From positions 40,711-104,710 of the IMG/VR virus record IMGVR_UViG_3300014775_001776: DNA of 64,000 nucleotides; one strand, written 5' to 3'. Numbering within the stretch: the stretch's first letter is position 1; the number at the start of each line of letters is the position of its first letter. Source of the stretch: a virus. This document shows positions 16,699 to 64,000 of this stretch, in pieces. The notes under the pieces were generated by a model. It was not told the DNA's origin. It searched no databases and saw nothing but the letters and a program-made list of their open reading frames with translations. A program made the translations under genes and the position numbers.

Positions 16699-19600
16699 AT
16701 GGCCAATACTGCAAAATTAAGATTTTTAACACTATTACAAGATTCAGGATTTAATAATCCTGGATTACTAGTTAGTGGATCTTCGGGTGTTGCGACAAGT
16801 AATAGTCTTGGAGGTGCTCAGGTTGGTGACAATATAGTATTAAAAGGGTTAACAACAGGTATTCCTGTAGGTTCAACAATTGATGGATTAGAGTTTAGTA
16901 ACTTAGTTGGTGCTACCCAAAAATCGATTTTTTTAAGGTTTATAATTGGTTTTTCTAGCGTTCCGGATAATTTAATAAGAGCTGAAGAAGTAACTGGTTC
17001 GACACAACAAGTAACCATTGGTGGGCCCACAGAACTTTTCGGTTATACGGGTCTTACAGTATCACTTTTAGAACAACTAACTTTAAAGTTTTTAGTAACG
17101 TCTAATACGGGTATCGGTGATTTATCAATCACCGGAAGTTCTGTATCGGGAAGTGAACTACCATCAGTTAAAGTTTATTATACTATTCCTCCTACTCCTA
17201 CACCAACAATAACTAGTACTGTTACTAGAACCCCAAAAGGAACTCAGACCGCTACTCCAACCATTACCCCAACCAATACCACTTCAAATACTCCAACTCC
17301 GACTGTTACTCCAGACCCTACTAAAACTCCTGCGTATTATAATTTAATACCTTGTTGTAGATCAGATGTAAATGAATATTATAGAATTAGTCAATCAAGT
17401 TGGGTTCAAAGCCCAATAGGTACATGGCAAATAGAAAATGATTACAATATACCTTCAGGTTGTTATACATTTTCACAAATAGTACCATCTGCGGACCCGT
17501 TAGGTAGTTTTGATTTTACAGGTGATGCGGTCGGTCCAATCTTTCTAGGTTGCGATGATAATAGTCTTTGTTTATGTCCTACAAATACACCTACTCCTAC
17601 AATAACCAGTACACCAACAATCACTCCAAGTAATCCTGTAACGCCAACCCCAACATATACACCTTTACCACCATTTGCCACTCCAACACCCTCTGAAGAT
17701 CCTAAATATAAGGATCAATATCCTAAACGTAATACTCAATATTTTACTTCTAATAATTGTGACGCTACAGTTCAGGATCCAATAATAAAAATATTTGGAA
17801 CTTATGAAGATGGTGAAAATTTAATAAATAAAGTTGTAACTTATGTAGATGATTTAGGTCATTCATTTAGTACGATAATTATTAATAGGGCTAGTTCACT
17901 TACAGACGATCAGATATCTGATGCTAAGTTTGCACAAACAGTTCATGATGATTGTGATGATGCTATAGAATTCATCGAGTATTATGATGGTGACATATCA
18001 AATATGTCATTTAGGGTCAACACATGTGAAGTAAAACCACAAAAGGCATTGCTTAGTATGACATTAAGTAATTCAAATGCTCTTTATCCATATACACATT
18101 TTAAAGTAGGTAGTACATGTTACTCCTTTAATATGTTCTATAAAGATAGTGGTGGATTAGTTGTGAATGAAAAATACTCTTCTTGTAGTGAGTGTGGATT
18201 TAATGGAACACAAACACCAACACCCACACAAACAAGTACACCTACATCAAGTCCAACATATACACCAACATCAACAGTAACTAATACGATTGATACAACA
18301 CCCACTGTAACGCCAACACAAAAATCGACAACTTATATTGCAACAAATTGTTGTAATGATAGTTTGGACATAAATGTTCAAGGTCCAATCAATCCTAAAA
18401 AAATATTTGTTTTTTATGATGGTACTATCCGTGATGAGAAAAAACTCAAATCAGCTTCAAAACAAATTAGGGAATGGTATTCTAGTTATCTAGTTAAAAA
18501 TCAATTTCAGACTGGTAACCTTTATGAGACTGTTATTGGTAATAGTCAGGATAATGCAAATGGTGAAAACTGGTTATGGTGGTCAGTTTATCCATACCTA
18601 GGTTCTTTATCTGGTGGTGATTTATCTGATGGTACTACAATTAACGAGTTTGATGATGTTGTTGAAAATAGTACTTTTATTAGTGAGTCTTGTGATTCAA
18701 GTAAATCAGGTTATAGATGTGCACCATATAAAACCCAAGTTAATGACTTTGGTTCTATCGCACAAAGAATTAACAGAGGTCTTGACCTAGATGACGGAAT
18801 AAGTTCAACAGTATCTAATGGTGTTGCTTTTAGTCATGATAATCTGAATCAGACTTATAATTCAGGAGTAGGACAATTTAATGGTGGTGAAAAAGATTAT
18901 TTGGTAATAACATTTATTGAAGAATCTGATGGTGAGATCGGGATGTACCATGGGCAAAGTACTAAAGATGATTTAATATATGATCCTTTTACACTAAAAG
19001 GTTATGGATGGGATCTGTCTCAAAGTAAAGAACCGACCAACAGGTATAAACATGATTATGAATCTTATCTTTCTGTTTGGGCTGACATTACTAACAATTT
19101 ATCTGGTGAAATAAATACTGCATTATATAATGTTACTGATGACTTACTGTCAAACTTTGCGTTTTCATTACATAATTTAGCTGCGGTTGAAGGTAATACT
19201 ATAAGTGCGTCTGATTTCCAAACAAAGTATGGTGATTCTATAACTGATGTGGGTCCTCAAAACTTAAATTTATCTATACTCACATCTGAAAATCCATACT
19301 CTGATCTTGAAACTACGACTAATTTTAATGATGTACTAAATCCTGAACAAAGAGAAAATGGTCCTGGTCTCACAAACTTTGGTTTCTTTACTAATCCTAC
19401 ACTCACAGAATGGGATGATAATACTTACTTAAGTGAAATAGGTACAAATGTCGACTATTTCTTAAAAGACGGATTTATACATGCTGGTCAATGTTATCAA
19501 TTCTTAAGATATGAAAATGTTACTCCCGCAGTTGTCATAAATGAATCAGATATTGTAAAAAATATTTGTTCAACTGACGATTGTGTACCTTTGTTATGTC

Positions 19601-22600
19601 CTAGTCCTACTGCAACGCCTACAAATACTATCCAACTTACACCAAATGTAACACCTACAATAACGAATACACCATTTATTACTAGAACACCAACAGTCAC
19701 ATCGACAATACCAGTAACACCTACACAATCTGTAGGAATTGCAAAATTACCTCCACAAACATTAGAATTCAATAAATGTAGTGTCGGAACTCCCGGTGAT
19801 AACACTCTTTATGTTAATCTGACATTATGGCAAAGTAATGGAGAAAAAATATCCTTTTACCATGGAGGATCATGTTATGAAGCAAAAAACACTAATCAAG
19901 TAACTACCAATTCACCCACTGCTTATCCAACAGTATGGTTCATCAGATGTCAAGATTGCGTAAACTATTTGGATGAATTACCCACACCAACACCTACACA
20001 AACACCAACAATCACCCCACAATATAGATGGGTTAACTTTGTAAGTTGTTGTGATAGCGGATTCTTGGTAAGAATAAAATTAAGAGTTGATGTTACACCC
20101 CTAGCTGGCCAAGGATTTTTCTATAATGACTGTTATTATTATGATCCGGTTTACGAGTTTTATAGTGGTGGTGTAGATTTAATAATAAGTAGTATTGTTT
20201 TAGATGGTCTCGATGATGATTTTTGTCAATCCTCATATTGTTCAACTTATGATCCGTGTCCAACATTAACGCCTACAAGTACACCAACAATTTCAATAAC
20301 CCCCTCACCTACAGAGACGACACCATTAAATTATTATAAAATTAATCCAAAAAGTTGTTGTGATGAATCACAACCATTTACAAACGGTTTATTTATAAAT
20401 GATTTAGTACCTGAAGGAAGTGTATTCATATATAATGGTGAAGAAATTGCATCCCTTAGAGGACAATGTTTTATTGCCGAATATGATCCAAATGTCAATC
20501 CTACTGAATATATTGTAGTTAATGAATTTTTAGGTAAATGCACTGAATGTAGCCAATTACCAGGATTTAAAGCTTGTGAAACACCAACCCCAACACCAAC
20601 AATAACATTGACTCAAACTCCAGACCTTTGTGCAGATCAAGACATAGTTATTCTTATTGATCAGTCAGGAAGTATTGGTAGTCAATCTAATTTTGATTTC
20701 TTAGTAAATGGTGCTATCGAAATAGCAAATTTATTAGAGGATCGTATGGATGCTGGTGAAGTACAAATAGGCGCTTATAAATGGTCAGATTGTGCTGAAG
20801 ATAAAATAGAACTATTAACAGGACTAACATCCAACCATACAAACTTTGTTAATGCATTAAGTGGTACGAGTTGGGATTTAGGTTATACGTATGCATCCAA
20901 ACCCATAGAACTGGCTTATAACCTTTTAAGTGGAAGTACAAATACTGAAGCTAAAAAGAACATCATTTTGATAACTGATGGTGTGATTTCAGATTTTACA
21001 GAGGCACCGGAATGTATTGATTTAGACAATCCGTTATATTCAACATCTCAGATCGCTTCCTTATTAAAGTTAGGATTGTATGGAAATGGTGAGCAAGTAA
21101 ATATTTACACCGTTAATGTAATAAATGGAAGTAATAATCAATTAGAAAGTATTTCATCAGGAGATGGATACCACTTCTATGCAGATTCCTTCTCAGATTT
21201 TCAAAATGTTGTATCTGGACTTATTGTTGATCAGGTATGTTCAGAAAGACCTATAGTTGAATCTGTAGAGAAATATCGAGCAAATCCATGCTGTGGGGGT
21301 GATCCTATTCTTGTTGGTGTTGCTAATGCAACGACTAGTGTTATAGGTAAAGGATTTGTATTTAATGGTGCTTGTTATGAAATCGAAGTTATAGTTCCAG
21401 GGAATGATGCTCCCGATCATGAAGTTTCTTCTAATGATTTATTTGACGATATTTGTTTAGATGTTAACAAATGTTCTTGTTTAAATTACAGAAAATTTGA
21501 ACTAGAAAATTGTTGCGATCCAAGTGATGTTATAACAATTGGATATTCAGCGGGTCAACCAGTATTAGGTTCAGGTATCGAATACAATAAAAAATGTTAT
21601 CAGTATAGAGGAAATGAAGGTAGTGGAGATACACAATTACTTTTAGATACTTTAGTGTTATCTATGTGTGGACAGGAAGGTTGTTTATGTGCTACACCGA
21701 CACCAACTGTTAGTCCAACGACTACAATGACCCAAACACCATCAATTACCAGTTCACCAACTGTGACAATAACTCCCTCTATAACTTCTTCCGAGACTCC
21801 GACACAAACACCCACCAACACAATTACTTCGACTATTACTGCTAGTCAATCGCCAACTATAACACCTTCTAATACATTAACAGTTACACCTACTAATACT
21901 ACACCTTCAGAATATGTAATTTACTCATTATCTGGTGTATGTGGAGAAGGGACTAAGTTATTATTTGTCAGTTCGATTGTAGAACCAGGAGATTTTATCC
22001 AATACAGTGGAACGTGTTATGAAGTTTTACAATACTCGGCCGGTACACCGACTGATACAGTAGACGTATTACCGAGTGAAATTTATGAAAATGCAGATGC
22101 ATGTACTCAAGATAGTCCTTGTGTTACATTAACTCCAACACCAACTCTCACACAAACACCGACAGTAACCATTAATAATACGCCTACTAATACTCCAACA
22201 CACTCACACACCGTCACACCATCTAAAGCAACTAAAGTTGCTATTATTCAATCTTGTTGTACTGGGGGTACGACTTATGAAATTTCAGTTACTACTGACG
22301 TAACAATAGGTGATTCTTTATTATATTCTGGATCGTGTTTTAATGTAATTTCACTTCCAGCAGGTCCAACAACTGGATTGATATATTATGATTTACCTTA
22401 CACTAGTTGTACTGACTGTACATCTTCTGAGACAATCTGTCCGACAGCGACCCCGACTGAAACACCAGCCGTTACTACTACCCCAACAAAAACACCTAAT
22501 ATTACTCCAGAAGTAACTTCGACACCAACTGGAAGTTTACCAATAGATACTTGGTTGGCTAGGGGTTGTTGTGACTTTAATGATACATTAAGAGTTAACG

Positions 22601-42100: not shown

Positions 42101-45100
42101 CACCTACTAGAGATATTTCAATTGTAGATGCTCAAAGCTGTTGTAGTTCATCTGTTATAAAAGTTAACATTCCCTATGATTTACAACCAGCTAGTGGTTT
42201 GACCTCTGTGATCGGGACTGTGATTAGTTTCGATAATCAATGTTATACGATAATTACAACTGGAAGTACTGGTACCCCAGTAGGTATTATCGATACAGAT
42301 GGTTCAGGAAATTATATTACTTACTCTGGGTGTTCAGCATGTACAAACGATGAACCATGTCCTACACCTACAATCACTGTAACAAATACTAATACAACAA
42401 CTAATACTCCGACTAATACACCAACTACTACAGTTACACCTACTGTTACCACTACAAATACACAAACACCAACACTTACAATGACAAAACAGTTTGAAAA
42501 ATGGATTGCAGTAAAATGTAATACAGGTGAATTATTAATAGTGGAATCTGAAAGTGGAACTACTGCTGGAAGTATTATACTTGTTGATAATCAATGTTAC
42601 ACCGCAACCTACACAACTACGACTGGTGTTACTGCATCTGCGGCTACATTAACTGAGTATGTTAATTGCGATCAATGTAGGACTGAATATCCAGATTTGT
42701 CACCAACTCCTGTGGCTTCACCTACTTCAACACCTTCATATACGCCTACATTAACATTAACTAGAACGAATACGCCAACACCATCACAGTCTAGTGGTTT
42801 TCCTATAGTTTACGCTCAAACAATTTGTTCTACAGGTACTACAAGTTTGAATAATGGACAGTTTTATGCTACCAATGAAGATCCAGAAATTGGGCAATAT
42901 GGTGAATTCGAAGGATCCTGCTACGAAATAATCTATATTTATCCAAGTGACTACGGATTCCCAGTTTATCCATTAGGTCTTGTTAATTTCCAATATAGTG
43001 GTGAATCAGAATGTAGTGACGTAAATCCATGTCCAACACCTACTCCGACCTTAACTGTGACAGTAACAAATACTATTACAAATACTATTACAAATACTAT
43101 TACCCCGACACCAACAATAACAAATACTAATACGGTTACTCAAACTATCACGTCTACTAGTGGGTTTAAATCTTACACATTAATTTCATGTTCAGCTTGT
43201 ACATACCAAGTTGATTTCTATAACATGTCTGAAATATATGAAGTTAACGATGTGGTTGAGGTTAGTGGTGTTTGTTATACTATAACTGGTGAAATTTCGT
43301 ATAATCCGTCTTTTGATACTGTAACTGCTACGACTTATGGTAATTGTGATTTATGTATAAGTTCTAATCCTTGTGTGACTCCTTCACCATCTAATACACC
43401 AACTTTAACTCCTACACTAACAGTAACAACTTCTATAGGTCAAAGGTTAGCTAGAGTAATAAACTGCTGTGACCCAAGTGATGTACAATTTTACAATGTA
43501 ATTAATGGTTCGACAGGAAGAACATTCAATAGTTCATATAAGTGCTGGGAAATAGTAGAGATTTACACATATCCGGCATCTGAGGTACCAGTATTTGTTG
43601 GTACATACTACAGTTCATGTACACAATGTACTACTGTACATTCAATTTGTCCGACCACCACACCGACAAATACACCAACATATACCTCAACAAACACACC
43701 AACTCCCACAAATACCGTAACAGTTACAAATACTATTACAAATACAAATACTCTTACAAACACCAATACACCTACACATACTGTTACAAATTCACCCACA
43801 CCTTCAGTGACACCATCATTTGGGACAACACCGACTCCAACACCTGGATTAACCGTAACACCAACGGTGACTGCGACAAACACCAGTACACCTACTCAAA
43901 CTGTTACACATTCAGTTACACCTTCAGTAACACCTTCAGTCGGAACAACTTCGACTCCAACACCGGGATTAACAGTAACACCAACAGCTACAGTCACAAA
44001 TACTCCTACAAACACGAGTACACCAACTCACACAGTCACAAATTCAGTAACACCTTCAGTCGGAACAACTTCGACCCCAACCCCTAATACAACTTCTACA
44101 CCTACACCAACTATAACTACTACACCTACATTTACACTGACAAATACCGAAACCCCAACGTATACTCCATCACCTACTCCGACACTAACAATATTTGCAT
44201 CACAAACACCAACTTTGAGTCCTACACCCACCAAAACATTTGCCGGGACTCCAACGAACACTCCAACCCTAACAAATACGCCAACTGTCACAGTCACGAA
44301 TACAAATACAAATACTCCTACATATTCTAACACTGTCACACCAACAAATACTTCAACGACTACATTAACACCTACTGTAACACAGACGATAACGAGCACG
44401 TCAGCTTTATTCACATGGTCATTGGTGGATACTTGTACAAATACCGTTTACGTATTTGCGAACCTTCCACAATATGTGAATGGTTATGAACTTATAAGCG
44501 GTGATCAAGTAGGTCTTTCAGGTGCATGTTATACATTACAATCAAAAATTAAATATATTAGTACTGGAACTACTGCTGAGTACCCATGTACATATATCTG
44601 TCCCTCTCCACAAAGTACATCTGGTGCTACACCAACACCAACTCCAACAATTACTAGGACACCAACTGTGACTCCAAGTGTGACAGGAACACAAGTTGCG
44701 ACACCTACAGTAACTGCTACAGTTACAAAGACAGCAACAGTCACAGTTACGAATACAATAACTAGGACGCATACTAGTACTCCTACAGTTACAAGTACTA
44801 CAGGTGCAACACCAACACCAACATTGTCGAACACAATGACAAATACACCAACAATTACTAAAACTGCTGGACCATTCCCAGTCACACCTTCTAATACTCC
44901 AACAACATCTGTGACACCGACATTATCACCTACAGGTCAATTTAAAGATGTAATAGCTTCTGGATCGTGTGAGGTTAGTGGTATTATAGCAGTTAATGTT
45001 CCACACTACGTCCTAATCGGTGAAATTATTACAGTTGAGGTCCCATATCAAGGTTATGTGGTAAATCAATGTTACCAAGTAATACAAGAGATCCCTGCAG

Positions 45101-47793
45101 GTGCTACTTTGATCGGTGAAACAACTACATACTCATCAGTTCAAGAATGTATTTCAAATAACAATCCATGTGCTGGTTTATTACCTAGTTCTACACCTTC
45201 AGTCACTAATACACCTACATATACAAACACACCTACATATACAAATACACCTACTTTGACATCTAACTTCAGAAGAGCTGCGTTTATGTCATTATGTTGT
45301 CCAAGTAGTGGTAGTTCGGAAATCACATATTTCAATATAAGTGCAAATATAATATCAGGTATTTTCTTCTACAATGGAACTTGTTATACACTAATACCAG
45401 ATGATTATGGTCAATTTAGTGGTACGACAGATACTTCTTTACCTTACTTGACTGATTATTATGAAAGTTGTTACGAATGTTCTGCAAGTAATACTGTAAT
45501 TTGTGGTACACCGCCAGTAACACCTACTAATACCTTGACACCGACAAATACGCCAACACATACTATAACCAGAACAATAAATGCTACACCAACACCATCA
45601 TTTACACAAACTCAGACGGGTACATTATTAGTTACATCAACACCATCTGGGTCTGCAGGTTTAATTGATATTCGGGTTAGTGGGGTTTGTTCTGGAGATA
45701 TATATGATGCATTATCAACAGTACCAGTATTTTTCGGACAAGTCGGTGTGTTTAATGGAGAATGTGCCACAGTTGTTGGTATAGGGGTTGGTAATGGAAC
45801 CGAAGTATTTACCGCAACTTATTTGACTGGAGACACTATTAATAATTGTCTAAGTGATAATACTTGTCCAACACCAACACCACAAATTACTTATACACCA
45901 ACGACAACACCAACTTTAACAAAAACATTAGCGGCAACAAGTGCTCCAAGATATTCCTACAATTATTACTTATGTCAATCATGTACTAATGAGACACAAT
46001 TTAGATACTTTAATGTTAGAAGTGATTTCCCTGAAGGAGGTGTTGTATTTGACGTTGAGACAAATAATTGTTTCCAGAGAGTTGAACAATTAGATCCACC
46101 AAAAGACAATAATGCTCCTCAGATTAACTCATTCTTTGTTGATTGTGAGACGTGTTTTGCAAGTAGAGGTAAGTCACTACCAACACCGACTGTTACTCCA
46201 CAAGTTACAACTACAGCTACACCAACGGGTAGTCCAACATATAGATTAAGGTTAGCACAAAGTTGTTGTACTGATTCTTATGAATACTTCAACGCACCTG
46301 AGAACTTACCAGTAGGTCAAATTGTTACTGTTAATGATGAGTGTTATACGTTGTTTGAGAGTTTACCAGTAGGTCCGTTCTTTGGATATCAGTATGTGAC
46401 AGTTGAAAATTTCCAAGATTGTGAAACTTGTACCCAAAATAAATCTTGCTATTCCTTATTCTTAATTAGAAGATGTAACGATTCAACAATTTATGATGTG
46501 GTAAACATTTATAAAGGCAATGAAGTTCCATTCTCGATAATTTATGATAATGAATGTTGGGATGTATTGACAAAATTAAGTGATACTGAAAATTCAGATT
46601 ACGAATATGCCACTATTGGTTTAGAATATGATAGTTGTGAGTTATGTTCAGACGATCTTACAAACTATTTAAATTCTATTGGAGCTTCGATGACACCAAC
46701 ACCAAATGTCACACCAACAATTACACCAACAATACCACAGGCTAAGAGTTTACCAGAAAATACAGTCTGTCTGACTCAAAATACACCAGTGACTGTTGAA
46801 TCAGGAAGTAATGGTTTTGAATATGTATTTGGAAATGGTAACTATGGAAAACAATATGCGGTCAATACTGGAACTTATATATTCCAGAACGTACCAATAG
46901 ATAATCCGATTACATTCTTAAATAGATTTGTGACTGGAACAACTGTTACAGGACAATATTTAAAAGGTACCAAAATTGCTAGTGATGGTAATGTTTATGA
47001 ATTCTTCTATGGTGATGTGACATTGACTGTTGAACAAGAATTTATTTCTATGAGTTATGAATCATGGGATCAAGGTTATTTAGGAGGACTAAATAATGTT
47101 ATATTCGATCCAACATGTTCAGATGGAATAGATTCGGATATGATAATATTTTATGTATGGGAAGATGGGATAGTCGCAAGGAAAAATGGGTTACCAGTCT
47201 TCAAAGAAATTGAAGATGTAATTAAGTTCTCTAACAAAAATAATTTTGACGGATATCATCTAGTTAAGTATGATTTACTAGGTTATAATTTTGAAAAACC
47301 GGATGAATTACAAATACTCGTTGAAGATAAAATAGGTTATTCACCAGGAAGTAATGAAAGAGCAGGATCGGAATTTGAAAGATTGGAGTTGAGATATGCT
47401 TTAAGATTAAGTGACCTTGTTAATAACACTAAAAATGTGAGAACCAAGACTGATTTCTATGGTCAAACATACTTACTTCAAGGAGATACATTATATGAAG
47501 GTATTGACAGACAAACTAATTCTACTGATTCTTACTACGTTGAGCAATATGGTAGATATTTCTATATAAGTGATTGTGGATTAGTAAATTTACCAGAAGA
47601 TGATGTAAATGATCTTTTCCCAGAAGCTGGTGGATTTAAGCGTTGTACTTGTGAAGTCAGAAGACCAGATTATTGCGGAGAAGAAGGAGTATATATCCAA
47701 AGTTCGATAACGATTAGATGTTGGAGACCAATTCCATGTCCTGTTTGTTGTACCGCATTTTCAATTGGAAACGGAGGAAAACAAATTGTTTAA
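39121..47793 (+). CDS. Giant beads-on-a-string protein: about 20 Cys modules separated by Thr-Pro mucin-like linkers
   Basis: About 2890 aa. The start is placed at ATG 39121 because MAQVIIRLT aligns with MANVIIRLT of ORF 33195 and the motif spacing matches. Repeated CC..CY..CxxC..C units. Confidence 0.82.
43651..44400 (+). repeat. Thr/Pro-rich tract containing a 120-nt (40-aa) tandem triplication
   Basis: TTCAGTAACACCTTCAGTCGGAACAACTTCGAC is identical at 43923 and 44043, with a diverged copy at 43803. Confidence 0.8.
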
Positions 47794-47861: not shown

Positions 47862-49130
47862 ATGCCTAGAAAAAAAGAAACAATATTTGTTCAGATTGCA
47901 TCATACAGAGATCCAGAACTAGTAAATACTCTGGAAAGTATGATAAAAAACGCTAAAAGACCAAAGAATTTGGTAATTGGTATTTGTAGACAATATCATC
48001 CAGAAGATGGATTTGATAACTTAGATAAGTGGAAAGATGATAAAAGATTTAGAGTAATCGATGTACCTTATACTGAAAGTAAGGGAGTTTGTTGGGCAAG
48101 ACACCAAGTCCAACAAGTTTATAGTGGTGAGACCTATACACTACAGATTGATTCACATATGAGATTTGAAAAAGATTGGGATGTTGAGATGATAGGTATG
48201 GTAAAGCAATTACAAAAAATGGGAATACCAAAACCATTATTGACATCATATGTTTCTTCTTTTGATCCAGAAAATGATCCACAAGCAAGGGTTACAGAAC
48301 CATGGAGAATGGCTTTTGATAGATTTATACCTGAAGGTGCGGTATTCTTCTTACCAGAAACAATACCCAATTGGAAAGAATTAGATACCCCAGTTCCATC
48401 TCGTTTCTATTCTGCCCACTATGCGTTTACGTTAGGAGAATTTTCAACAGAGGTACAACACAACCCTGAATATTATTTCCACGGTGAAGAAATTTCAATT
48501 GCTGCTAGAGCATATACTTGGGGTTATGATTTATTCCACCCACACAAAGTTTTAATTTGGCACGAATATACTAGAAAAGGTAGGACAAAACAATGGGATG
48601 ATGATAAAAAGTGGGTAGATCGTAATAAGCATTCGCATCTTACAAATAGAAAATTATTCGGAATGGATGGTGAAATCCAAGAGGGTCACGATGGTAAGTA
48701 TGGTTTTGGACCTGTGAGAACTTTAGAAGAATACGAAGAATATAGTGGATTACATTTTCAGAAAAGAGGAATACAACAATATACATTAGATAAAAACTAC
48801 CCACCAAACCCAGGAATCGATACATTCGAAAATAAAGAGGCTTGGTTAGATAGTTTTGCAACAATCTACAAGCACTGTATTGATGTTGGTTATGATTCTG
48901 TACCTGAAAAAGATTATGAATTCTGGGTGGTTGCTTTCCACGATAAAGAAGATAATACAATTTTCAGAAAAGATGCGGATAAGGGTGAAATTGATAGAAT
49001 GATGAGAGATCCTGATGGTTATTGTAAAATTTGGAGAGAATTTAATATTACTGAGAAACCAGCATATTGGGTTGTTTGGCCATACTCAACTGAAAAAGGA
49101 TGGTGTGAAAGATTAACAGGTAATCTTTAA
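47862..49130 (+). CDS. Polypeptide alpha-GlcNAc transferase-like glycosyltransferase (GT60 / Pfam GlcNAc, Gnt1-like)
   Basis: IFVQIASYRDPE, SKGVCWAR, LQIDSHMRF (DxH), FHGEEISIAARAYTWGYDLFHP and IWHEY are the conserved blocks of Dictyostelium Gnt1/Gnt2-type enzymes. Confidence 0.9.
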   Translation: MPRKKETIFVQIASYRDPELVNTLESMIKNAKRPKNLVIGICRQYHPEDGFDNLDKWKDDKRFRVIDVPYTESKGVCWARHQVQQVYSGETYTLQIDSHMRFEKDWDVEMIGMVKQLQKMGIPKPLLTSYVSSFDPENDPQARVTEPWRMAFDRFIPEGAVFFLPETIPNWKELDTPVPSRFYSAHYAFTLGEFSTEVQHNPEYYFHGEEISIAARAYTWGYDLFHPHKVLIWHEYTRKGRTKQWDDDKKWVDRNKHSHLTNRKLFGMDGEIQEGHDGKYGFGPVRTLEEYEEYSGLHFQKRGIQQYTLDKNYPPNPGIDTFENKEAWLDSFATIYKHCIDVGYDSVPEKDYEFWVVAFHDKEDNTIFRKDADKGEIDRMMRDPDGYCKIWREFNITEKPAYWVVWPYSTEKGWCERLTGNL

Positions 49131-50904: not shown

Positions 50905-53900
50905 ATGTCAGGATTTAAATTAGGTCAAAAAGTATTATTGAGTAATGGTTCTCAAGTTGAAATAGAAAATATTCAACTTGGGGACCAATTATTTTCTTTT
51001 GATATACCCGAAATCGTTGTCGGTAAAGATTTCCGTGACATTACTTTTCCATCTATAGATGTTGAAAATGTAAGAACCCCTGAGGTAGTTGAGGTCTACC
51101 AAAATGAGGGTAACTATATCCAAATTAATGATTTGGGTTTAATTGATGAGTATGTCTTAGCTTATCACAAACAATCAAAACAATATCAATTTGTTCACAC
51201 CACAGATTTACTTGTTGGTGGATATTATGATATGGTTAGATATGTGGAGGGTGATATTGTCCACGAGGAGGTTGTCAGTAAAGAAATTGTATATTCTTTT
51301 GACCCTCTTTATAACTTAAGTCTTACTAAACCTAACTACTATGTTTTGGATGGTTATATCGTCCATAACGTAGGTTATGCTTGTATTTCACCATGTGACC
51401 CCGCATTAACCCAAGTGGCGTGTATACAAAACGTATATGGTTTTACCACTGGAAATGCTTTTATTGATAATCTTAATGTTTGTTGGGAGGTAATAAGTGT
51501 AGGACCTTGTGAGGGATGTTCTGCTAACGTATCATTTATTGGTAGTGTGGTGTCCACTTTTGAAAACTGTGATGGTTGTAGAGGTGGTGGAGAGCCGGTG
51601 CCTTTTGACCCTGAGAATCCTGAAAATCCTTATGATATTGGTAATGCAGAAGACCCTTGTTGTGTTTATCTAATTGCTTGTAGTGATATTGACCCTGGTG
51701 CTTGTGCAGAGTGTTCATATACTCTGAATCAACAATATGTTACCATTAACAATTTAACTCCGTGTCCAAATGCTGGTCAGGTTGTTAAGTTAGATACTTG
51801 TGATAACTGTTGTTATTTCATTGAGGGAGTGGTTCCTAACTGTACTCCTGTTGCCACTTGTGATGCTACGGTATATGAAACGTGTACTGAGTGTTGTAAT
51901 GCTGCACCACCTGAGTCACCGACCCCAACACCTACTCGTACTCCAACTCGTACTCCATCTCCAACACCTACTAAGACTCCGACTCCCACACCAACACCTG
52001 CGGTTGATAAGTATTTAATGGCTAATTGTTGTGATGAGAATGATACAATAATTCTTTCTGTACAATCTGGTACTGTAATTTATCAGGGTGATGGTGTTAT
52101 TAACCCATTAGGTAATAATAAGTGTTATTATGTTGTAAACTCTTCAACAGGCACTCCGGATGCATTTGTTGATGCGGGTAGTTGGATTGAGCAGATATGT
52201 GATTATCCTGAATGTCCTACATGTCCTTCACCTACACCAACCCCGACTAAAACGGTAACGCCTTCACCTACTCGTACCCCAACTAATACTCCTACTGCGT
52301 CTGTTACTCGTACTCCTACGAATACTCCGACCAACACGGTAACTCCTTCTATAACTAGAACCCCAACAAATACGCCAACCGCATCGGTAACGAGAACCCC
52401 AACCGTTACTCCAACAAATACGGTTACACCATCTATTACTAGAACTCCTACAAATACTCCTACTGCGTCTGTTACTCCTTCTGTTACTGCCTCAGTTACT
52501 CCATCACAAACCGCAGCGGTTACACCTACAAATACGCCGACAAATACGGTCACTCCGTCAATCACACGTACCCCAACGAATACTCCAACATCATCGGTAA
52601 CTCCATCGGTGACTAGGACGCCAACAGTAACTCCGTCTATCACTCGTACACCGACTAATACTCCTACTAGTACGGTAACACCATCTATTACACGTACTCC
52701 AACGAATACGCCGACACCTTCTATCACCCCAACGAACACCCCAACACCATCTATTACGCCTTCTGTAACTAGAACACCAACTAATACTCCTACGAGTACG
52801 GTCACTCCTTCTATTACTAGAACACCTACGAATACTCCAACCCCGTCAATTACGCCAACTAACACTCCAACTAACACTGTTACTCCTTCAATCACAAGGA
52901 CGCCAACTAATACGCCGACCAGTACCGTAACACCATCTATTACTCGTACTCCGACTAATACTCCAACACCGTCAATAACCCCTACAAATACTCCCACGAA
53001 TACAGTTACTCCTTCAATCACAAGGACACCGACAAATACACCAACGTCAACTGTAACTCCTTCTATCACTAGAACACCAACTAATACTCCAACGGCTTCG
53101 GTTACCCCTACTCATACGCCGACAAATACGGTTACCCCATCTATCACTCGTACACCAACGAATACACCAACTGCGTCTATCACTCCGTCCAACACTGTAA
53201 CCCCAACGGTTACTCCATCTATTACTCGTACTCCTACAAATACACCTACGGCGTCTGTTACTGCAACTCCAACTGAGACCCCGACAAACACGCCAACAAA
53301 TACGGTAACTCCGTCAATTACTCGCACCCCTACAAATACACCAACGGCATCTGTAACACCATCTGTTACTGCTTCGGTAACACCTTCTCAGACCGCTGCG
53401 GTTACACCAACGAATACCCCGACAAATACTGTTACTCCTTCAATTACTCGCACACCAACAAACACACCTACATCTACGGTAACACCTTCTATTACCAGAA
53501 CACCAACTAATACTCCAACGGCATCTGTAACTCCAACAAATACTGTAACACCATCTATAACTCGTACACCAACGAATACTCCTACGGCGTCTGTTACTCC
53601 ATCTGTTACTGCTTCGGTAACTCCGTCTCAGACTGCCGCAGTTACTCCTACAAATACGCCAACGAACACAGTTACACCTTCAATTACTAGAACACCAACC
53701 AATACTCCAACTGCTTCAGTTACACCATCTAATACTGTAACCCCATCTATAACTCGTACTCCTACTTATACTCCAACTTCTACTGTAACTCCTTCTATTA
53801 CTCGTACACCTACCAATACTCCGACAGCATCTGTAACTGCTTCGGTTACTCCGTCTGTTACCCCAACTGAAACTCCTACGAATACTCCAACAGCATCTGT

Positions 53901-56900
53901 TACACCATCACAGACGGCTGCGGTTACTCCTACAAACACACCTACATCTACGGTAACACCATCATTGACTAGAACTCCAACTAATACTCCAACTGCGTCA
54001 GTAACTGCAACACCTACGAATACTCCTACGAATACGGTTACACCGTCAATCACTCGTACTCCGACAAACACTCCAACTGCGTCTGTAACGGCATCGGTAA
54101 CGCCATCAGTAACTCCAACTGAAACACCAACTAATACACCTACTGCGTCAGTGACTCCGTCACAAACGGCTGCGGTTACTCCGACAAATACTCCTACATC
54201 AACAGTTACTCCATCAATCACTCGTACTCCGACAAACACACCAACGGCATCAGTAACTGCGACACCTACTAATACGCCGACATCAACGGTAACGCCTTCT
54301 ATTACTAGAACCCCGACATATACACCGACTGCTTCAGTAACGGCTTCGGTTACTCCATCTATTACTCCTACTGAAACCCCAACACAGACTCCAACGAATA
54401 CTGTTACTCCGTCTATCACTCCAACTGAAACTCCGACTAACACTCCTACGGCTTCAGTTACACCATCGGTAACTCCAACGGAGACGCCAACGAACACTCC
54501 AACTGCATCTGTTACTCCATCTCAAACTGCGGCAGTTACACCAACAAACACTTCTACTCCGACAAATACTCCTACATCAACTGTAACACCAACACAAACG
54601 GTAACTCCTTCAAATACTGTTACTCCAACATTCACGCCGACAAATACAATAACCCCTACAAACACGGTAACTCCGTCTAATACTGTTACTCCAACATTTA
54701 CTCCAACAGCATCAGTCACCCCATCTGTAACACCAACCGAAACGCCAACTAATACGCCAACCGCATCGGTAACACCATCGGTAACGCCAACTGAGACCCC
54801 AACGAATACTCCAACAGCATCTGTAACACCATCTCAGACTGCAGCGGTTACACCTACTAATACACCAACATCGACTGTAACACCTACTGCGACGGTTACA
54901 CCAACCAATACGGTAACACCTTCAAATACGGTAACTCCGACTTACACTCCAACTAATACGATTACCCCTACAAATACGGTAACTCCATCGAATACCGTGA
55001 CACCTACCTTTACACCTACCGCTTCTGTTACTCCGACAGAAACACCAACTCAAACGCCAACAAATACTCCAACTGCGAGTGTCACTCCTTCTATTACTCC
55101 AACAGAGACACCAACAAATACTCCTACCGCATCTGTTACACCATCTCAGACTGCTCAGGTTACTCCTACGAATACACCGACATCTACGATTACTCCAACG
55201 GTTACTTCATCGGTAACACCAACTGAAACGCCAACACAGACTCCAACTAACACTCCAACTGCGTCAGTGACCCCTTCACAGACAGCCGCAGTTACCCCTA
55301 CGAATACTCCAACATCGACTGTTACACCGACTGCAACTGTAACTCCAACTAATACGGTAACTCCTTCAAATACTGTTACACCAACATACACTCCAACTGC
55401 AACAATTACATCAACACCGACATTTACACCTACATCATCTGTAACCCCATCTGTTACACCGACAGAGACTCCGACTAACACTCCAACCGCAAGTGTTACA
55501 CCATCAGTAACTCCGACAGAAACTCCTACTAATACTCCAACTGCAACAATTACACCAACACAAACAGCAGCAGTTACTCCGACAAATACTCCTACTTCAA
55601 CAGTAACTCCAACCGCGACGGTTACTCCAACAAATACTGTAACTCCATCTAATACGGTAACGCCTACTTACACCCCAACTTCAACAGTTACACCAACGAA
55701 CACGTTGACACCGACAAATACCATCACTCCTACAAATACCCCTACATCATCGGTAACTCCAACCGAAACACCTACTCAAACGCCGACAAATACGCCGACT
55801 GCTTCGGTTACACCTTCTATTACTCCTACTGAAACACCTACAAACACTCCGACTGCCTCTGTTACCCCTTCTGAAACTCCTGGAGTTACACCAACTAACA
55901 CCCCAACGGCAACGATTACTCCAACTCAAACAATCACACCGACAAATACTGTTACTCCGTCTAATACAGTTACACCGACTAATACTCCTACATCATCGGT
56001 AACTCCGACACCAACTGAAACGCCAACTAACACTCCAACGGCAAGTGTTACACCGTCTGTAACCCCAACTGAGACACCTACTCAAACTCCAACAAATACT
56101 CCTACCGCTTCGGTTACTCCAACTCAAACTGCACAGGTAACTCCAACATCTTCTGTTACCCCAACAGAAACACCAACACAAACACCTACAAATACTCCAA
56201 CTGCGAGTATTACTCCGTCTGTTACCCCTACTGAAACACCTACAAACACACCTACTTCAACGATTACCCCAACACAGACAAATACACCTACAAATACGGT
56301 TACACCTTCTAATACTCCTCAGGTAACTCCAACAGTTACTCCTACAAACACGCCAACATCATCAGTTACTCCATCGGTTACCCCAACTGAAACACCGACA
56401 CAGACACCGACATCTACTATTACTCCAACACCTACAAACACACCTACATCTACGTTGACATCCACACCAACAGGAACTCCTGCGGTTACTCCAACATCAA
56501 CTATAACTCCGACTCAAACACCAACAAATACAACTACGGTAACACCTACGAATACGATTACTCCAACTGAGACTCCAACGAATACTCCAACTTCGTCAGT
56601 TACACCAACCCCACCATCATCTCCAACACCTACACCAACTAACACTATTACTCCTACCCAAACGGTAACAACAACCGCTACGGTTACTCCAACAGCGTCT
56701 ATTACTCCATCCGTAACTGCGTCAGTTACGCCAACATTTACACCAACGAGTACGGTTACACCAACTGGAACTCCGGCAGTTACTCCAACGAATACACCAA
56801 CTGAAACTACCACAAATACTCCAACTCCGACAATCACTAGTACCGCAACGGTTACCCCTACATTGACGGCATCACCAACAGGAACACCAGAGGTTACACC

Positions 56901-58629
56901 GACAAATACCCCTACTCAGACTCCTACGTCTTCTGTAACTCCATCGGTAACTCCGACTGAAACGCCAACTAACACTCCAACTGCGAGTGTAACCCCTTCT
57001 ATTACCCCAACTGAAACACCTACACAAACGCCAACTAATACACCAACAGCATCTGTAACTCCATCTGAAACACCATCAGTAACTCCTACGAATACTCCTA
57101 CATCAACGATTACTCCTACTCAAACTATTACCCCAACGAATACTGTAACTCCAACTCAGACGATTACTACTACTCAAACTCAAACACCAACACAGACTCC
57201 AACGAATACTGTAACTCCTTCTATTACTCCAACTAACACACCTACTCAGACATCAACAGTCACTCCAACTGCATCTGTTACACCTTCACAAACCGCCAAT
57301 GTTACCCCAACAAATACACCTACACAAACTCAAACGGTTACTCCTACGGCGTCCATCACTCCATCGATTACACCTTCTGTTACACCTACAGAGACACCAA
57401 CACAAACTCCTACTATTACATCAACTGTAACGGTTACTCCTTCTATTACTCCTACTGAAACTCCAACTGAGACTCCAACTAACACTCCAACTGCGTCAGT
57501 AACACCATCTCAAACACCAGGTGGAACACCAACTAATACGCCTACTCAAACATCAACTCCGACAGCGACAATTACACCAACTCAAACATCAACTGTTACA
57601 CCAACCGAAACCCCAACGAACACTCCGACACCATCGGTTACTCCTTCTATTACACCTTCTGAAACTCCTACTCAAACTCCAACTGCAACAGTTACGCCAA
57701 CAGGTACACCTGGTACTACACCAACAAATACACCAACGTCAACGATTACCCCAACACAAACAGGTACTGTGACTCCAACACCTTCAGTTACGTCATCGGT
57801 AACTCCTTCTAATACTCCAACACAAACTCAAACACCGACAAACACAACAACATCAACACCGACAGGAACACCAGGAACTACTCCAACTGAAACACCAACT
57901 CAGACTCCAACTAATACTCCTACATCATCAGTTGCGGTGACACCTACACCTACTATTACATCAACAGGAACTGCTACCCCTACACCGACCCCAACGGTTA
58001 CACCATCTGAGACTAGTACATTGACAGATTGTTCACTGTATCAGATTGATGTGGCATCGTTGAATCAATTATCAGGAACATTTGAATTGTACTACACTCG
58101 TTGTGAAGATGTAAGTTGTGGTCAGGATAGTATTGTTCACTTAGTGGTGGAAAATGTTGGATTTTCAACTACATTCTGTGCGTTGACAGACTCAGTGGTT
58201 ATCCCTGTGGACTTTACAGGTGGTACATTAACCACTATTTGTACGGGTTGTTGTTCATCACCAGCAGTTACTCCTACTCCAACATTAACACCATCGACAA
58301 GTACAGGAGGTTCAACACCAACGCCAACAATAACCTCAACAGTAACACAAACACCAACTGTGAGTCCATCAATCTCAATTACACCAACAGGTACTCCAAC
58401 ACCAACACCAACAATACCAGCATTCACAGGTGCTTGTGAATGTGTTAGATACATCATCTCAGGAGGTACAGGTTCTTACACTGTTTGGTCAGCTTACTGT
58501 TATGATAGTAGTATGTATGCTACAAATATGCCGGCGGGTGGTTACTATTCAGTATGTGCTTGTAACGGAAGTTTAAGTATAGATAATGGTACATATACTG
58601 TCCTAAACATTGGTGCTGACGATTGTTAA
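50905..58629 (+). CDS. Mucin-like giant protein with N-terminal Hint domain, Cys modules and an approximately 1930-aa Thr/Pro/Ser stalk
   Basis: 2574 aa. [25 protein letters not shown] is Hint block A-like and [19 protein letters not shown] is blocks F/G, ending at 51369. The T/P/S tract spans 52225-58020 and the C-terminal modules are Cys-rich. Confidence 0.85.
52225..58020 (+). repeat. Degenerate coding repeat array (TPTNTPTxxVTPSITR, TPSQTAAV and TPTETP units)
   Basis: About 1930 codons almost entirely T, P, S, V, N, A, I, Q, E and R; the peptide units recur many times with scrambled synonymous codons. Confidence 0.92.
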
Positions 58630-58659
58630 CACTTTATATGGGTAAAAAAAGGATTAAGA

Positions 58660-58667
58660 TATTTATA
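58660..58667 (+). promoter_or_regulatory. TATTTATA motif, putative late promoter
   Basis: Intergenic, 14 nt before the ATG at 58682. Confidence 0.55.
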
Positions 58668-58681
58668 AACAAATAGAATAA

Positions 58682-59557: not shown

Positions 59558-59558
59558 G

Positions 59559-60947
59559 ATGAGTAGTTATACGGCAAATACAAACAGTTGTGGTATCAAA
59601 ACCATTTTCCCGATGGGTATAATTACCTTTGTTGAGGAACCATCAACTCCAACATCAGCTGATGGAACAATCGCCTTATTCATTAGTGGTGGTACTCCAC
59701 CATATTCTATTTTATGGTCTAACGGTCAAACAAACACACAATTTTTAAGTGGTGTATCTGCTGGTGATTATAGTGTGACTGTAACAGATTATTATGGTGA
59801 TTATACTGATAGTGAATCTGTTGTTATTTCTGGTGTTCCTGTAACTCCGTCCGCAACACCGACACCAACACCATCTCCAACACCATCTCCAACATATTCA
59901 GATTATATGTGTATGACATTGAACCAATCACCATATACTCAATATGAATTCGGATATCAGGGTATTATCAATGGTAAACCATCATGGAGTGGTACTTCAT
60001 TTGATATGGTTTATGATTCTGCTGATACTCGTTGGGAAATCTCTGGTTGGACAGGAACAGGAGAGGTTGTTAAGTATACTACAATTACAACACCAACAGG
60101 TACTTGGAATCAGTTGGGAACTGACTATAGTTGGAGTGTTGCTACAGGACAATGTACTAGCCAACCATTAGCGTTGATTTTAAATACGACTAATGAAACT
60201 TGTTCAGGATTGAATAATGGTACACTTACGGTATCAGTAACGAATGGTACTACACCTTATACTTACTCAATCAATGGTGGGGCAACACAGGCTTCTAATT
60301 TCTTTAGTAGTATTCCTCCTGGAAATAGTTACGTAACTGTGGTAGATGCATCGGCCAATACTGTAACTGAAAACTTCACAATTAATGCCGGTCCATTGTC
60401 ACAAACATATTCAGTTCAATTTACTCAAACAATTACATCTGGTTTAATTACACAAACACAGGCTAGTAAAACAATGGTATGGACGGCATCTATAACACCT
60501 ACATTACCAACAGGTGCATCGGTAACCTTTAATATTAACTTTAACCACGTTGAAACTGATAATTGGGTTGACTTAGGAAGTATGTATCAAAATGCTTCGT
60601 TTGTATCGGCATCTACAATCAGTGCTGTAGGTAGTGCGGTAGTTAACTCAACAACACAAAGTGCAACTGTTAATGGTTCGACTACATCATCTTGTGGTGG
60701 TCAGTCAGGGGTAACTCATTCTACTGTTTATAATGTAACATTGAGTGGAGGTTATGTTACGGGTACCATCAATTCAACGGTATTGAATGATGCATCTGAG
60801 AATCCAAGTTGTCCTGTGTATGGAACAGTAAGTGATAGTTTGGGTATTAGCGGAGCGGGTATTAATGGAACTACCTGTGGTAACGTAAGTCAGACAGTAA
60901 CACCAATAACAATGAGTACAACAACAAATCCATTTTTATTAACATAA
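59559..60947 (+). CDS. SprB-repeat-containing structural protein
   Basis: ADGTIALFISGGTPPYSILWSNG...AGDYSVTVTD and NETCSGLNNGTLTVSVTNGTTPYTYSING; short PT linker; 462 aa. Confidence 0.78.
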   Translation: MSSYTANTNSCGIKTIFPMGIITFVEEPSTPTSADGTIALFISGGTPPYSILWSNGQTNTQFLSGVSAGDYSVTVTDYYGDYTDSESVVISGVPVTPSATPTPTPSPTPSPTYSDYMCMTLNQSPYTQYEFGYQGIINGKPSWSGTSFDMVYDSADTRWEISGWTGTGEVVKYTTITTPTGTWNQLGTDYSWSVATGQCTSQPLALILNTTNETCSGLNNGTLTVSVTNGTTPYTYSINGGATQASNFFSSIPPGNSYVTVVDASANTVTENFTINAGPLSQTYSVQFTQTITSGLITQTQASKTMVWTASITPTLPTGASVTFNINFNHVETDNWVDLGSMYQNASFVSASTISAVGSAVVNSTTQSATVNGSTTSSCGGQSGVTHSTVYNVTLSGGYVTGTINSTVLNDASENPSCPVYGTVSDSLGISGAGINGTTCGNVSQTVTPITMSTTTNPFLLT

Positions 60948-60961
60948 AGTAATTAATAAAG

Positions 60962-60968
60962 TATTTAT
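60962..60968 (+). promoter_or_regulatory. TATTTAT motif, putative late promoter
   Basis: 6 nt before the ATG at 60975. Confidence 0.55.
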
Positions 60969-60974
60969 CATCAT

Positions 60975-63176: not shown

Positions 63177-63184
63177 GAAGATAT

Positions 63185-63784
63185 ATGGCAAAAAATTTAA
63201 AGAATACTCCAAAGGTATTGGGGTTAGATATTTCAACCAAAACTATTGGTTGGTCACTATTCGATATTCAAACACAAAAATTATTGGAATTAACTCACGT
63301 TTCACCTGTGATTAAACCTAAACCTGAAGATAAGGTTGAGGAGTTATTGGGTAAGGTTGATGCGTTCGAGGAGAAGTTATCAGAATACAAAGACTTCGGT
63401 ATTACCAAAGTCATTATTGAGGAACCATTATTAAACTCTAATAACGTATGGACCGTTGGTACTCTATTGAGATACAACTCAATGATTACAAAGTCTATCT
63501 ATGATATTTTAGGGGTTGTGCCACACTATATTTCAACATATAACTCACGTAAATTTGCTTGGCCAGAATTCGTTCAGGATAATGGTAAAGGAAAGAAAGT
63601 ATTGTTTGGTGGATTACCAAAAGATATTGATAAGAAAGAGTTGATTTGGCAAAAAGTTTCAGAGGCAGAACCACAAATCGTTTGGTTGTATACACGTAAC
63701 AACACATTGAAGAAAGAATGTTACGACCAAGCAGATGCATACACTTGTGTTCAGGGTTATATGAAGCAAGAAGGTTTGTGGTAA
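63185..63784 (+). CDS. ruvC: RuvC-like Holliday junction resolvase
   Basis: VLGLDISTKTIGWS, VIIEEP and DQADAY supply the RuvC acidic residues; 199 aa. Confidence 0.8.
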   Translation: MAKNLKNTPKVLGLDISTKTIGWSLFDIQTQKLLELTHVSPVIKPKPEDKVEELLGKVDAFEEKLSEYKDFGITKVIIEEPLLNSNNVWTVGTLLRYNSMITKSIYDILGVVPHYISTYNSRKFAWPEFVQDNGKGKKVLFGGLPKDIDKKELIWQKVSEAEPQIVWLYTRNNTLKKECYDQADAYTCVQGYMKQEGLW

Positions 63785-64000
63785 TGTATCTCAATCAGAA
63801 AAAGAAAATATTATTCAATCATATACCGAAGACTGCCGGTACATCTATCTTATTCCAATTGGGTAAGAACAATGAACACTGGGATATCTTTATGGGTATG
63901 CATGTCGTCTATAGTCAGGTTTATCAGAAACACCCTGACATTTACGAAGATTTAAAATTAAATTGGGATAAATTCACCACAGTACGTAACCCATGGGACC
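63784..64000 (+). CDS. PAPS-dependent sulfotransferase (Sulfotransfer_2-like), 3'-truncated; absent from the ORF track
   Basis: The ATG overlaps the ruvC stop (TAATG). Manual translation gives MYLNQKKKILFNHIPKTAGTSILFQLG...DKFTTVRNPWD, containing the 5'-PSB (HIPKTAGTS) and 3'-PB (FTTVRNPWD) motifs. Confidence 0.88.
   Translation, partial: MYLNQKKKILFNHIPKTAGTSILFQLGKNNEHWDIFMGMHVVYSQVYQKHPDIYEDLKLNWDKFTTVRNPWD

Follow-up and report, generated by a model that had tools for sequence, protein, structure and literature searches.

Results

The giant-protein and glycosyltransferase module

The DNA analysed here, referred to throughout as the window, is a stretch of 64,000 nucleotides from the IMG/VR virus record IMGVR_UViG_3300014775_001776 (positions 40,711 to 104,710). 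It contains a series of giant Thr/Pro-rich open reading frames (ORFs) and, set among them, a glycosyltransferase (GT) of family GT60 and a second, two-domain GT. Together these genes may well be the core of a phage-borne protein O-glycosylation system. The features are collected in Table 1, and genes are named by their start positions.

The window is the terminal 64 kb of a viral contig of 104.7 kb, which represents an estimated 35% or so of a genome of roughly 300 kb. The part of the contig before the window codes for tail sheath, tail tube, baseplate hub, helicases, single-stranded DNA-binding protein, a UvsX-like recombinase and ribonucleotide reductase. The window itself opens with ribonucleotide reductase, continues with gp25- and gp6-type baseplate wedge genes and then with very large ORFs that match no known family, all of its long ORFs being on the + strand. 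Since the contig carries myovirus sheath, tube, hub and gp25/gp6-type baseplate genes, its phage origin, assumed in a preliminary description of this DNA, is borne out, and by its gene content the source is a jumbo myovirus.

The genes of the module are co-oriented and separated by gaps of 21-68 nt, with 68 nt between the end of 39121 and the start of 47862. No terminator-like site was found in these gaps, and promoter and terminator scans performed no better on the module than on shuffled sequences. The two GT genes, 47862 and 49152, do lie between the two most Thr/Pro-rich genes, as was originally described.

Table 1. Features of the window discussed in the text
Feature	Position	Strand	Remarks
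Giant protein, 3751 aa	16699..27954	+	(S/T)-X/Pro tracts between Cys-rich modules; aa 1315-1504 a von Willebrand factor A domain; candidate substrate and fibre
Giant protein, 1960 aa	33195..39077	+	Cys-rich modules; one PT tract at aa 423-487; weak zincin (Reprolysin-like) motif at about aa 1574-1685
Giant protein, 2890 aa (T 18%, P 8%)	39121..47793	+	About 18 (S/T)-X tracts alternating with Cys-rich modules; candidate substrate
GT60-family glycosyltransferase, 422 aa, predicted soluble	47862..49130	+	GT-A catalytic domain; beta-rich C-terminal domain at about aa 333-421
Two-domain glycosyltransferase, 568 aa	49152..50858	+	HtrL/YibB-type N-terminal domain; GT2-like C-terminal domain
Probable junction of two related phage genomes	50307..50355	.	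Inside the 3' part of 49152; GATC-containing left, GATC-free right
Mucin-like giant protein, 2574 aa	50905..58629	+	Hint-like N-terminus at about aa 1-156, Cys-rich modules, 1,963-aa (S/T)-X tract, Cys-rich C-terminal domain
(S/T)-X dipeptide tract of 50905, aa 425-2387	52177..58065	+	810 Thr, 381 Pro, 191 Ser
Small Thr/Ser/Cys-rich protein, 291 aa	58682..59557	+	One PT tract at aa 73-124
Thr/Ser/Gly-rich protein, 462 aa	59559..60947	+	SprB repeats (PF13573, E 3e-17); marginal 20-aa (S/T)-X tract
RuvC-like Holliday-junction resolvase	63185..63784	+	phrog_159, E 7e-8; marks the end of the fibre module
Sulfotransfer_2-type sulfotransferase, 5' fragment, 72 aa	63784..64000	+	HIPKTAGTS and RNPWD motifs; cut by the contig end

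The two glycosyltransferases

The product of 47862 matches PF11397 with an E-value of 7e-69 and 233.3 bits (cut-off 21), the profile that the preliminary description had expected, and on this evidence it is a true GT60 enzyme. In an alignment of 41 diverse homologues, D97-S98-H99 (the DxH motif) and the distal histidine H234, a putative metal ligand, are invariant. Its AlphaFold (AF2) model has a GT-A fold with a predicted local distance difference test score (pLDDT) of 95.5, and the top 30 or so fold matches in the PDB are GT27 polypeptide N-acetylgalactosaminyltransferases (ppGalNAc-transferases; E about 3e-10). A PDB sequence search with the GT60 query gave no match. The use of DxH in place of DxD is specific to GT27 and GT60, two families that share polypeptide Ser/Thr O-glycosylation (PMC7185993). 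Fold and motif agree with the kinship of GT60 to the animal GT27 enzymes stated earlier. TcOGNT1, a GT60 enzyme of Trypanosoma cruzi, makes GlcNAc-alpha1-O-Thr (N-acetylglucosamine linked to threonine) on mucin-like proteins (PMC9472816), and by analogy we propose that 47862 could be an initiating polypeptide O-glycosyltransferase. More than 7,400 close GT60 proteins occur in metagenomes, where the proteins P0123-P0125, P0132 and P0136 (1,600-2,500 aa) have as many as four GT60-like regions each.

The second GT was also upheld by its profiles, since both domains of 49152 score above their cut-offs: HtrL_YibB (PF09612) at aa 11-253 with 50.7 bits (cut-off 24.1) and Glycos_transf_2 (PF00535) at aa 304-403 with 28 bits (cut-off 23.3). 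In the GT2 domain E393-D394-D395 is invariant. The NCBIfam YibB equivalog model gave 64 bits against a cut-off of 265, and 49152 is therefore a relative of YibB rather than its orthologue. The structural model (pLDDT 89) consists of two GT-A domains, and its best fold matches, all at low TM-scores (0.23-0.29), are Mimivirus R699 at the top together with LH3, K4CP, LARGE1, COLGALT1 and PmHS2. Because these are two-GT-A-domain enzymes, 49152 appears to be a transferase of the bifunctional type, and the model leads us to propose that it may act as an extending or polymerising enzyme.

The giant Thr/Pro/Ser-tract proteins

Thr/Pro/Ser tracts had been reported in six ORFs (16699, 33195, 39121, 50905, 58682 and 59559), and all six carry them, that of 59559 being marginal. 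The longest, put at about 1930 aa, was measured at 1,963 aa and consists of 41% Thr, 19% Pro and 10% Ser (51% Ser/Thr). Ser or Thr occupies 946 of its 981 odd positions (96%) and 55 even ones, and this confinement to odd positions means that a single dipeptide register is kept across the entire tract of 50905. Runs of (S/T)-X take up 1,952 residues of this protein, compared with 29 on average in composition-preserving shuffles, and in 16699 the corresponding figures are 408 and 0.7; 39121 has 558 such residues. Every tandem-repeat period in the DNA of the 50905 tract is a multiple of 6 nt. Dense Ser/Thr/Pro tandem repeats, the mark of a substrate in a mucin-type system, are thus found in this tract. 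Charge is graded along it, with Arg units only in the first ~800 tract residues (protein aa ~400-1200) and Glu units dominant later.

A crude hydropathy check detected no transmembrane segment or signal peptide in the giants, 47862 or 49152, in agreement with the earlier remark that the substrates have no obvious signal peptide. The giant-protein genes lie directly 3' of the gp25/gp6-type baseplate genes on the same strand, and from this gene order we predict that the giants are virion parts, probably flexible fibres or whiskers of great length.

The PT linkers of 16699, 33195, 39121, 50905 and 58682 (window 17330-59290) alternate with dozens of Cys-rich modules that measure ~60-90 aa and show CC and CxxC patterns, and none of these modules matched a known family. 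The family phrog_15511 was rejected as a home for the giants, its matches falling on low-complexity PT tracts. Besides the von Willebrand factor A domain inside 16699, weak zincin/HExxH matches (Reprolysin- and Matrixin-like) were seen in two giants (27983-32515 and 33195-39077), where they could represent metalloprotease domains carried on the virion. For aa 1-156 of 50905 (window 50905-51372), the language-model look-alikes all belong to the Hint clan (score 0.91, 179 shared features); the segment ends in VHN and has nearly no N-extein, and neither Pfam at E 0.01 nor a PDB sequence search matched it. The look-alikes suggest that this N-terminus may be a self-removing leader.

Conservation in related phages

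Conservation was assessed in 80 IMG/VR loci (72-85% identity). An HtrL/GT2 gene follows 1.6-8 kb downstream of GT60 in 75 of the 80 loci, and in 74 an ORF no more than 10 kb away is PT-rich. Directly upstream of GT60, the neighbouring ORF is of this kind in 44 of 66 loci, and PT residues amount to 55.9 per kb upstream versus 7.2 per kb downstream. Since these loci are related by descent, they represent few independent observations. Viral scans with two distant GT60 representatives found two loci for P0228, neither of them with a PT tract, and no locus for P0264.

Between GT60 and HtrL/GT2, related phages carry inserted GT25, GT10, GT61, PLOD-type and GT4-like transferases, as well as a carbamoyltransferase, FkbM and CmcI-type methyltransferases, a HAD-nucleotidyltransferase fusion, a kinase and an aldolase. 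Apart from the GTs, these are enzymes that would tailor or activate sugars. From its genes, this variable cassette looks like a glycan-building island that diversifies in the manner of O-antigen loci, and a lineage-specific glycan is probable because transferases and tailoring enzymes of such variety are inserted between the two genes. The commonest upstream PT-rich proteins (for example L027:1012-2016, from a cluster of 153 ORFs in 72 loci) have a C-terminal ConA-like Laminin_G_3 domain, an arrangement that could correspond to a stalk with a lectin-like head.

XacN1 and jumbo phages without GT60

GT60 was found in 4 of 50,697 phage records, namely Xanthomonas phages XacN1 and Xoo-sp13 and Stenotrophomonas phages CM1 and RAS14. 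XacN1 and Xoo-sp13 share with the window these two genes alone in the region (48% identity for GT60 and 38% for HtrL/GT2). The GT operon of XacN1 neighbours baseplate wedge genes and the gene for a protein of 3,313 aa, and the order runs from the baseplate wedge through the giant ORF325, which has a PT tract, to the GT operon. In purified XacN1 virions, Schiff staining revealed glycoproteins in at least two bands (PMC5852040, Suppl. Fig. S4).

Genomes were scanned for TP repeats with a (TP)4 DNA pattern, one mismatch allowed, and the reversed pattern as control. The scan returned 30 matches in XacN1, 21 in Xoo-sp13 and 20 in CM1, compared with 0-1 for the reversed control, and none in any of the GT60-less jumbo phages Atu_ph07, SCTP-2, RaK2 and GAP32, which have been placed in XacN1's broad group (PMC5852040). 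The three GT60 phages are mutually related, so that the comparison is effectively one contrast. Within that limit, the co-occurrence of GT60 with PT tracts across jumbo phages anticipated in the preliminary description holds, and PT tracts in GT60-less jumbo phages, which had been named as evidence that would speak against it, were absent from the four checked.

Gene pairs and TP-repeat ORFs in bacteria

GT60 adjoins HtrL/GT2 in about 30 bacterial loci as well, from Gemmatimonadota, Acidobacteriota, Myxococcota-like bacteria, Alpha- and Gammaproteobacteria and others. Of 18 high-GC loci, 8-9 have a small ORF with TP repeats next to the pair, in which the T/S alternation is kept. When the (TP)4 scan was applied genome-wide to three genomes of ~4 Mb, 11 of 12, 15 of 16 and 14 of 17 matches fell inside the pair-adjacent ORF, and in a fourth genome the single perfect match falls in that ORF. 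A genome of 72% GC (G006) had scattered pattern matches and was uninformative. Chance adjacency is negligible in these genomes, even given the way in which the loci were selected. Because a genome's (TP)4 matches concentrate in the ORF beside the GT60 pair, (S/T)-P/X repeats appear to be the acceptor of the pair, and these bacterial modules provide the strongest new argument for that view. Genome-wide controls included, the link between GT60 and Thr/Pro tracts drawn earlier therefore extends well past the window, to related phages, XacN1 and its group, and bacteria.

The bacterial TP-repeat neighbours (L117:9245-9970, L118:9068, L119:9164, L136:4192-5065, L138:6943-7455, L157:11566-12144 and L158:6816-7452) include some with a twin-arginine-like leader (RRRLLQxLG) and some with a PqqD-like N-terminus. 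Such leaders suggest that the bacterial proteins may be glycosylated in the cytoplasm and then exported.

A probable junction inside 49152

The tetranucleotide GATC occurs 194 times up to position 49974 of the window (152 expected) and not once in the remaining 14 kb (48 expected), and its counts are normal over the first 90 kb of the contig. Among 99 related phage loci (L005-L103), 78 are without any GATC and 21 have a normal content, so the clade has two kinds of genome, GATC-free and GATC-containing; the pattern hints at GATC-directed host restriction as the background to the two lineages.

For a check of the junction, contigs from four public runs were aligned to 47.5-52.3 kb of the window. 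Low-depth contigs of one run (X3) match perfectly up to 50355 and diverge beyond it, while for those of the three other runs (including X1 and X6) the match begins at 50307-50360 and continues to the right, their sequence to the left being unlike the window. Depth also differs in the runs that contain both sides (about 2 vs 10-14), and no contig of the four runs spans the 49-nt overlap 50307-50355. Because GATC is lost after 49974 and the contig matches are one-sided and of unequal depth, a chimera is probable; an assembly chimera is the most likely explanation and a natural mosaic a less likely one.

In the GATC-free relatives L005-L008 the gene order of the window recurs, with PT-rich ORFs, then GT60 and HtrL/GT2, then a giant with Hint and PT parts like 50905, and in GATC-containing relatives PT-rich ORFs also precede GT60.

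The sulfotransferase fragment

The ORF at 63784, called a PAPS (3'-phosphoadenosine 5'-phosphosulfate) sulfotransferase in the preliminary description, exists and has HIPKTAGTS and RNPWD motifs, which we take to be PAPS-loop-like. It is, however, a fragment of 72 aa that scores below the Pfam cut-off for Sulfotransfer_2 (E 7e-4, 20.2 bits, cut-off 22) and, since it follows the RuvC-like resolvase gene, it belongs to the next gene module and not to the fibre module. The fragment is 38% identical (E 7e-7) to the ORF directly after GT60 in L163, a Verrucomicrobiales genome, and only weakly similar (E 0.07) to the Sulfotransfer_2 ORFs of related phages, where full-length examples are present; in one related phage the Sulfotransfer_2 domain is fused to a PLOD-type GT domain directly after GT60. 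The earlier idea of a sulfotransferase that caps the glycan thus finds a link to the cassette in relatives, through the fusion and L163, but the copy in the window sits past the resolvase gene. Judged from these sequences, glycan sulfation is plausible in the wider family, and we consider it doubtful for the window itself.

In the closest relative for this region (L085:10703-13159), a Sulfotransfer_2 ORF is flanked by genes for a PALP (cysteine-synthase-like) enzyme and a metallophosphoesterase, in a neighbourhood of replication and metabolic genes, and the three may form a small sulfur/PAPS-related gene group.

Habitat and likely host

The public runs with parts of the window are metagenomes of marine sediment, seawater, estuary and aquaculture. 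The nearest GT60 copies in cellular assemblies are on low-GC contigs binned with Bacteroidota (Saprospiraceae, Lewinellaceae and Cytophagaceae). These copies, together with the SprB repeats in one protein of the fibre region, hint at a host in Bacteroidota. Aquatic jumbo phages with Bacteroidota hosts and four core GT families have been described under the name 'moraphage' (PMC12619734), and the lineage of the window may be among them.

Discussion

Our results show that a GT60 enzyme, an HtrL/GT2 partner and Thr/Pro tracts occur together as a genuine module of wide distribution. The families of the genes, the conserved pair and the association with TP repeats are observed, and with moderate confidence we read the window as the core of a phage-borne system for protein O-glycosylation. 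The soluble GT60 enzyme 47862 would transfer the first sugar from a nucleotide sugar onto Thr/Ser of the (S/T)-X/Pro tracts in the host cytoplasm; by analogy with the protist relatives, this sugar is probably an alpha-linked N-acetylhexosamine. To it 49152 might add two further residues or a repeating unit, and in related phages the extra GTs (GT10, GT25, GT61 and PLOD-type) and the carbamoyl-, methyl- and sulfotransferases could vary the glycan by lineage. The substrates would have a beads-on-a-string build, with Cys-rich modules joined by (S/T)-X linkers, and as products of genes just after the baseplate would be long fibres or whiskers, the 1,963-aa tract alone reaching ~0.5 micrometre if extended. 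In this scheme the acceptor residue, the donor sugar, the cytoplasmic timing, the location in the virion and the role, which may be stiffening, shielding from proteases or defence, or adhesion, are all things that we infer.

Several observations weigh against this interpretation, some of them in favour of a particular alternative. Two related phages have probably been joined in the window, within the conserved 3' end of 49152, and the genes to the left and right of ~50.3 kb may never have coexisted in one genome. With a GATC step at 49974 and no bridging contig, it is doubtful that a single phage has the complete layout. The chimera weakens the claim of such a phage and not the underlying biology, because the system is present in each lineage, GATC-free and GATC-containing alike; the core idea of GT60 acting with Thr/Pro tracts is supported, and was overstated for this contig. 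The Schiff-positive bands of XacN1 were not assigned to proteins by the authors (PMC5852040). Many bacterial GT60 homologues have no PT-rich neighbour. Fusion of GT60 to a PT tract, considered as a Rosetta-stone argument, occurs in 2 of 150 diverse GT60 proteins and was not used as evidence.

The pair of GTs could instead act on a non-protein acceptor, either phage DNA bases or host lipopolysaccharide (LPS) or capsule, and the Thr/Pro tracts would then be unmodified spacers. HtrL/YibB is an LPS-region family, named after a gene in the LPS-core region of Escherichia coli, and the fold matches of the GT enzymes include TarP and TarS, which glycosylate wall teichoic acid. However, the characterised GT60 enzymes and the best fold matches have polypeptide acceptors, no membrane anchor is predicted, as a lipid-linked acceptor would suggest, and in the bacterial genomes the sole or dominant TP-repeat ORF adjoins the pair. 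As regards DNA, the cassette adjoins the gene for DNA polymerase B, two genes before it, in most related phages and is near DNA polymerase and RNase H in XacN1, and variable multi-GT cassettes hypermodify phage DNA (10.1101/2023.12.21.572611; PMC13326640). Those two papers make no mention of GT60, PF11397 or XacN1, though, and no ThyA-family hydroxymethylase was found in a relative that is 98% complete; Tet/JBP also had no match there, but the Tet control was silent and this result carries no weight. We therefore regard a non-protein acceptor as unlikely.

A second alternative places the (S/T)-X giants, glycosylated or not, outside the virion, as an intracellular or post-lysis scaffold, decoy, matrix or adhesive. 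The giants match no structural, fibre or baseplate family in Pfam, PHROG or NCBIfam, the Hint-like N-terminus of 50905 suggests processing, and in a complete relative the PT tracts are dispersed over at least five sites. Electron microscopy of XacN1 revealed no tail fibres (PMC5852040). Against this stand the position of the giants' genes directly after gp25/gp6-type baseplate genes, the same order in XacN1, and the fact that the XacN1 glycoproteins came from purified virions, which together make a purely non-virion role improbable in our view.

The least probable alternative keeps the same substrates and makes hydroxyproline the acceptor, after prolyl hydroxylation by a phage or host 2-oxoglutarate (2OG) oxygenase, as for Gnt1 of Dictyostelium and Toxoplasma on Skp1 or for plant hydroxyproline O-glycosylation. 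GT60 includes the hydroxyproline-directed Gnt1, Pro fills 377 X positions of the 50905 tract, and one relative (G001, 98% complete) encodes two 2OG-FeII_Oxy_3 ORFs of the prolyl 4-hydroxylase (P4H) type; yet no P4H-like gene was found on this contig or in three other partial relatives, such genes lie ~210 kb from the cassette where present, and the strictest feature of the tract is Ser/Thr at every second position (96%) and not Pro, the bacterial ORFs being alike in this.

The reading we prefer, dense O-glycosylation of Ser/Thr in the tracts, is best judged beside known systems. Protist GT60 enzymes (TcOGNT1/2, Dictyostelium Gnt2, and Gnt1 on Skp1-hydroxyproline) share PF11397 and DxH with 47862, and their Thr-rich repeat acceptors resemble the tracts; they are mostly Golgi type-II membrane proteins, whereas 47862 is phage-encoded, predicted to be soluble and provided with an extra beta-rich C-terminal domain. 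GT27 ppGalNAc-transferases likewise have a DxH-containing GT-A catalytic domain followed by a C-terminal accessory domain, but their identity to 47862 is 10-17%, they belong to another Pfam/CAZy family, and the C-terminal domain of 47862 may not be a ricin-type lectin. The XacN1 operon ORF334-ORF330 has orthologous genes beside baseplate and giant genes, with scattered TP-repeat tracts; XacN1 differs in its gammaproteobacterial host and in a longest PT tract of ~280 aa against 1,963 aa in the window, and its authors did not connect the GTs to PT tracts (PMC5852040).

Phages that glycosylate their own structural proteins are not without precedent. In mycobacteriophages, own GTs modify own structural proteins in the host cytoplasm, as proposed here (Freeman et al. 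2023, as cited in PMC12619734), but in that summary the modified sites are short tails at the C-termini of capsid and tail-tube subunits, and the GTs are of other families, with neither giant repeat proteins nor GT60 appearing in it. Mimivirus has virus-encoded glycan machinery that acts on long surface fibrils, and its R699 has a two-GT-A architecture like that of 49152; for R699, LARGE1, K4CP, PmHS2, LH3 and COLGALT1 the resemblance to 49152 lies in the fold, at the low TM-scores given above, and no family membership was found at the sequence level. Our search of the literature on GT60 in phages and on mucin-like proteins of jumbo phages found no description of this system. The statement that no phage pathway with the complete layout is known needs to be tempered by the virion O-glycosylation of mycobacteriophages (PMC12619734) and the glycoprotein bands of XacN1 (PMC5852040).

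A bolder extension of the preferred reading, which we consider a long shot, is that the module is an ancient prokaryotic 'proteoglycan' device. GT60 would prime every second residue, the 49152-type partner would polymerise a disaccharide in the manner of LARGE1 or chondroitin/heparosan synthases, and sulfo-, carbamoyl- and methyl-tailoring would follow, giving, in the host cytoplasm, half-micrometre, possibly sulfated, glycosaminoglycan-like phage fibres of bottle-brush form; bacteria would use the same device on small TP-repeat proteins with leaders of the twin-arginine (Tat) type, which would be modified first and exported afterwards.

What this work adds is the link to the XacN1 glycoproteins, the bacterial three-gene modules with their genome-wide controls, the comparison of GT60-bearing with GT60-less jumbo phages, the recognition of 49152 as a two-domain enzyme and the evidence for a chimera. 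The idea can be tested directly on the bacterial modules and on XacN1, a phage in culture. If it is true, tailed phages use enzymes of their own to make mucin- or proteoglycan-like glycoproteins inside bacteria, with ~1,000 potential sites per protein; we know of no glycosylation on this scale outside eukaryotic secretory pathways and giant viruses. Confirmation would supply a substrate class for the large prokaryotic GT60 family and a compact two-enzyme route to dense cytoplasmic O-glycosylation that could be used in glyco-engineering, and it would revise the view of fibres, adhesion, particle stickiness and shielding from immunity or defence in abundant aquatic jumbo phages.

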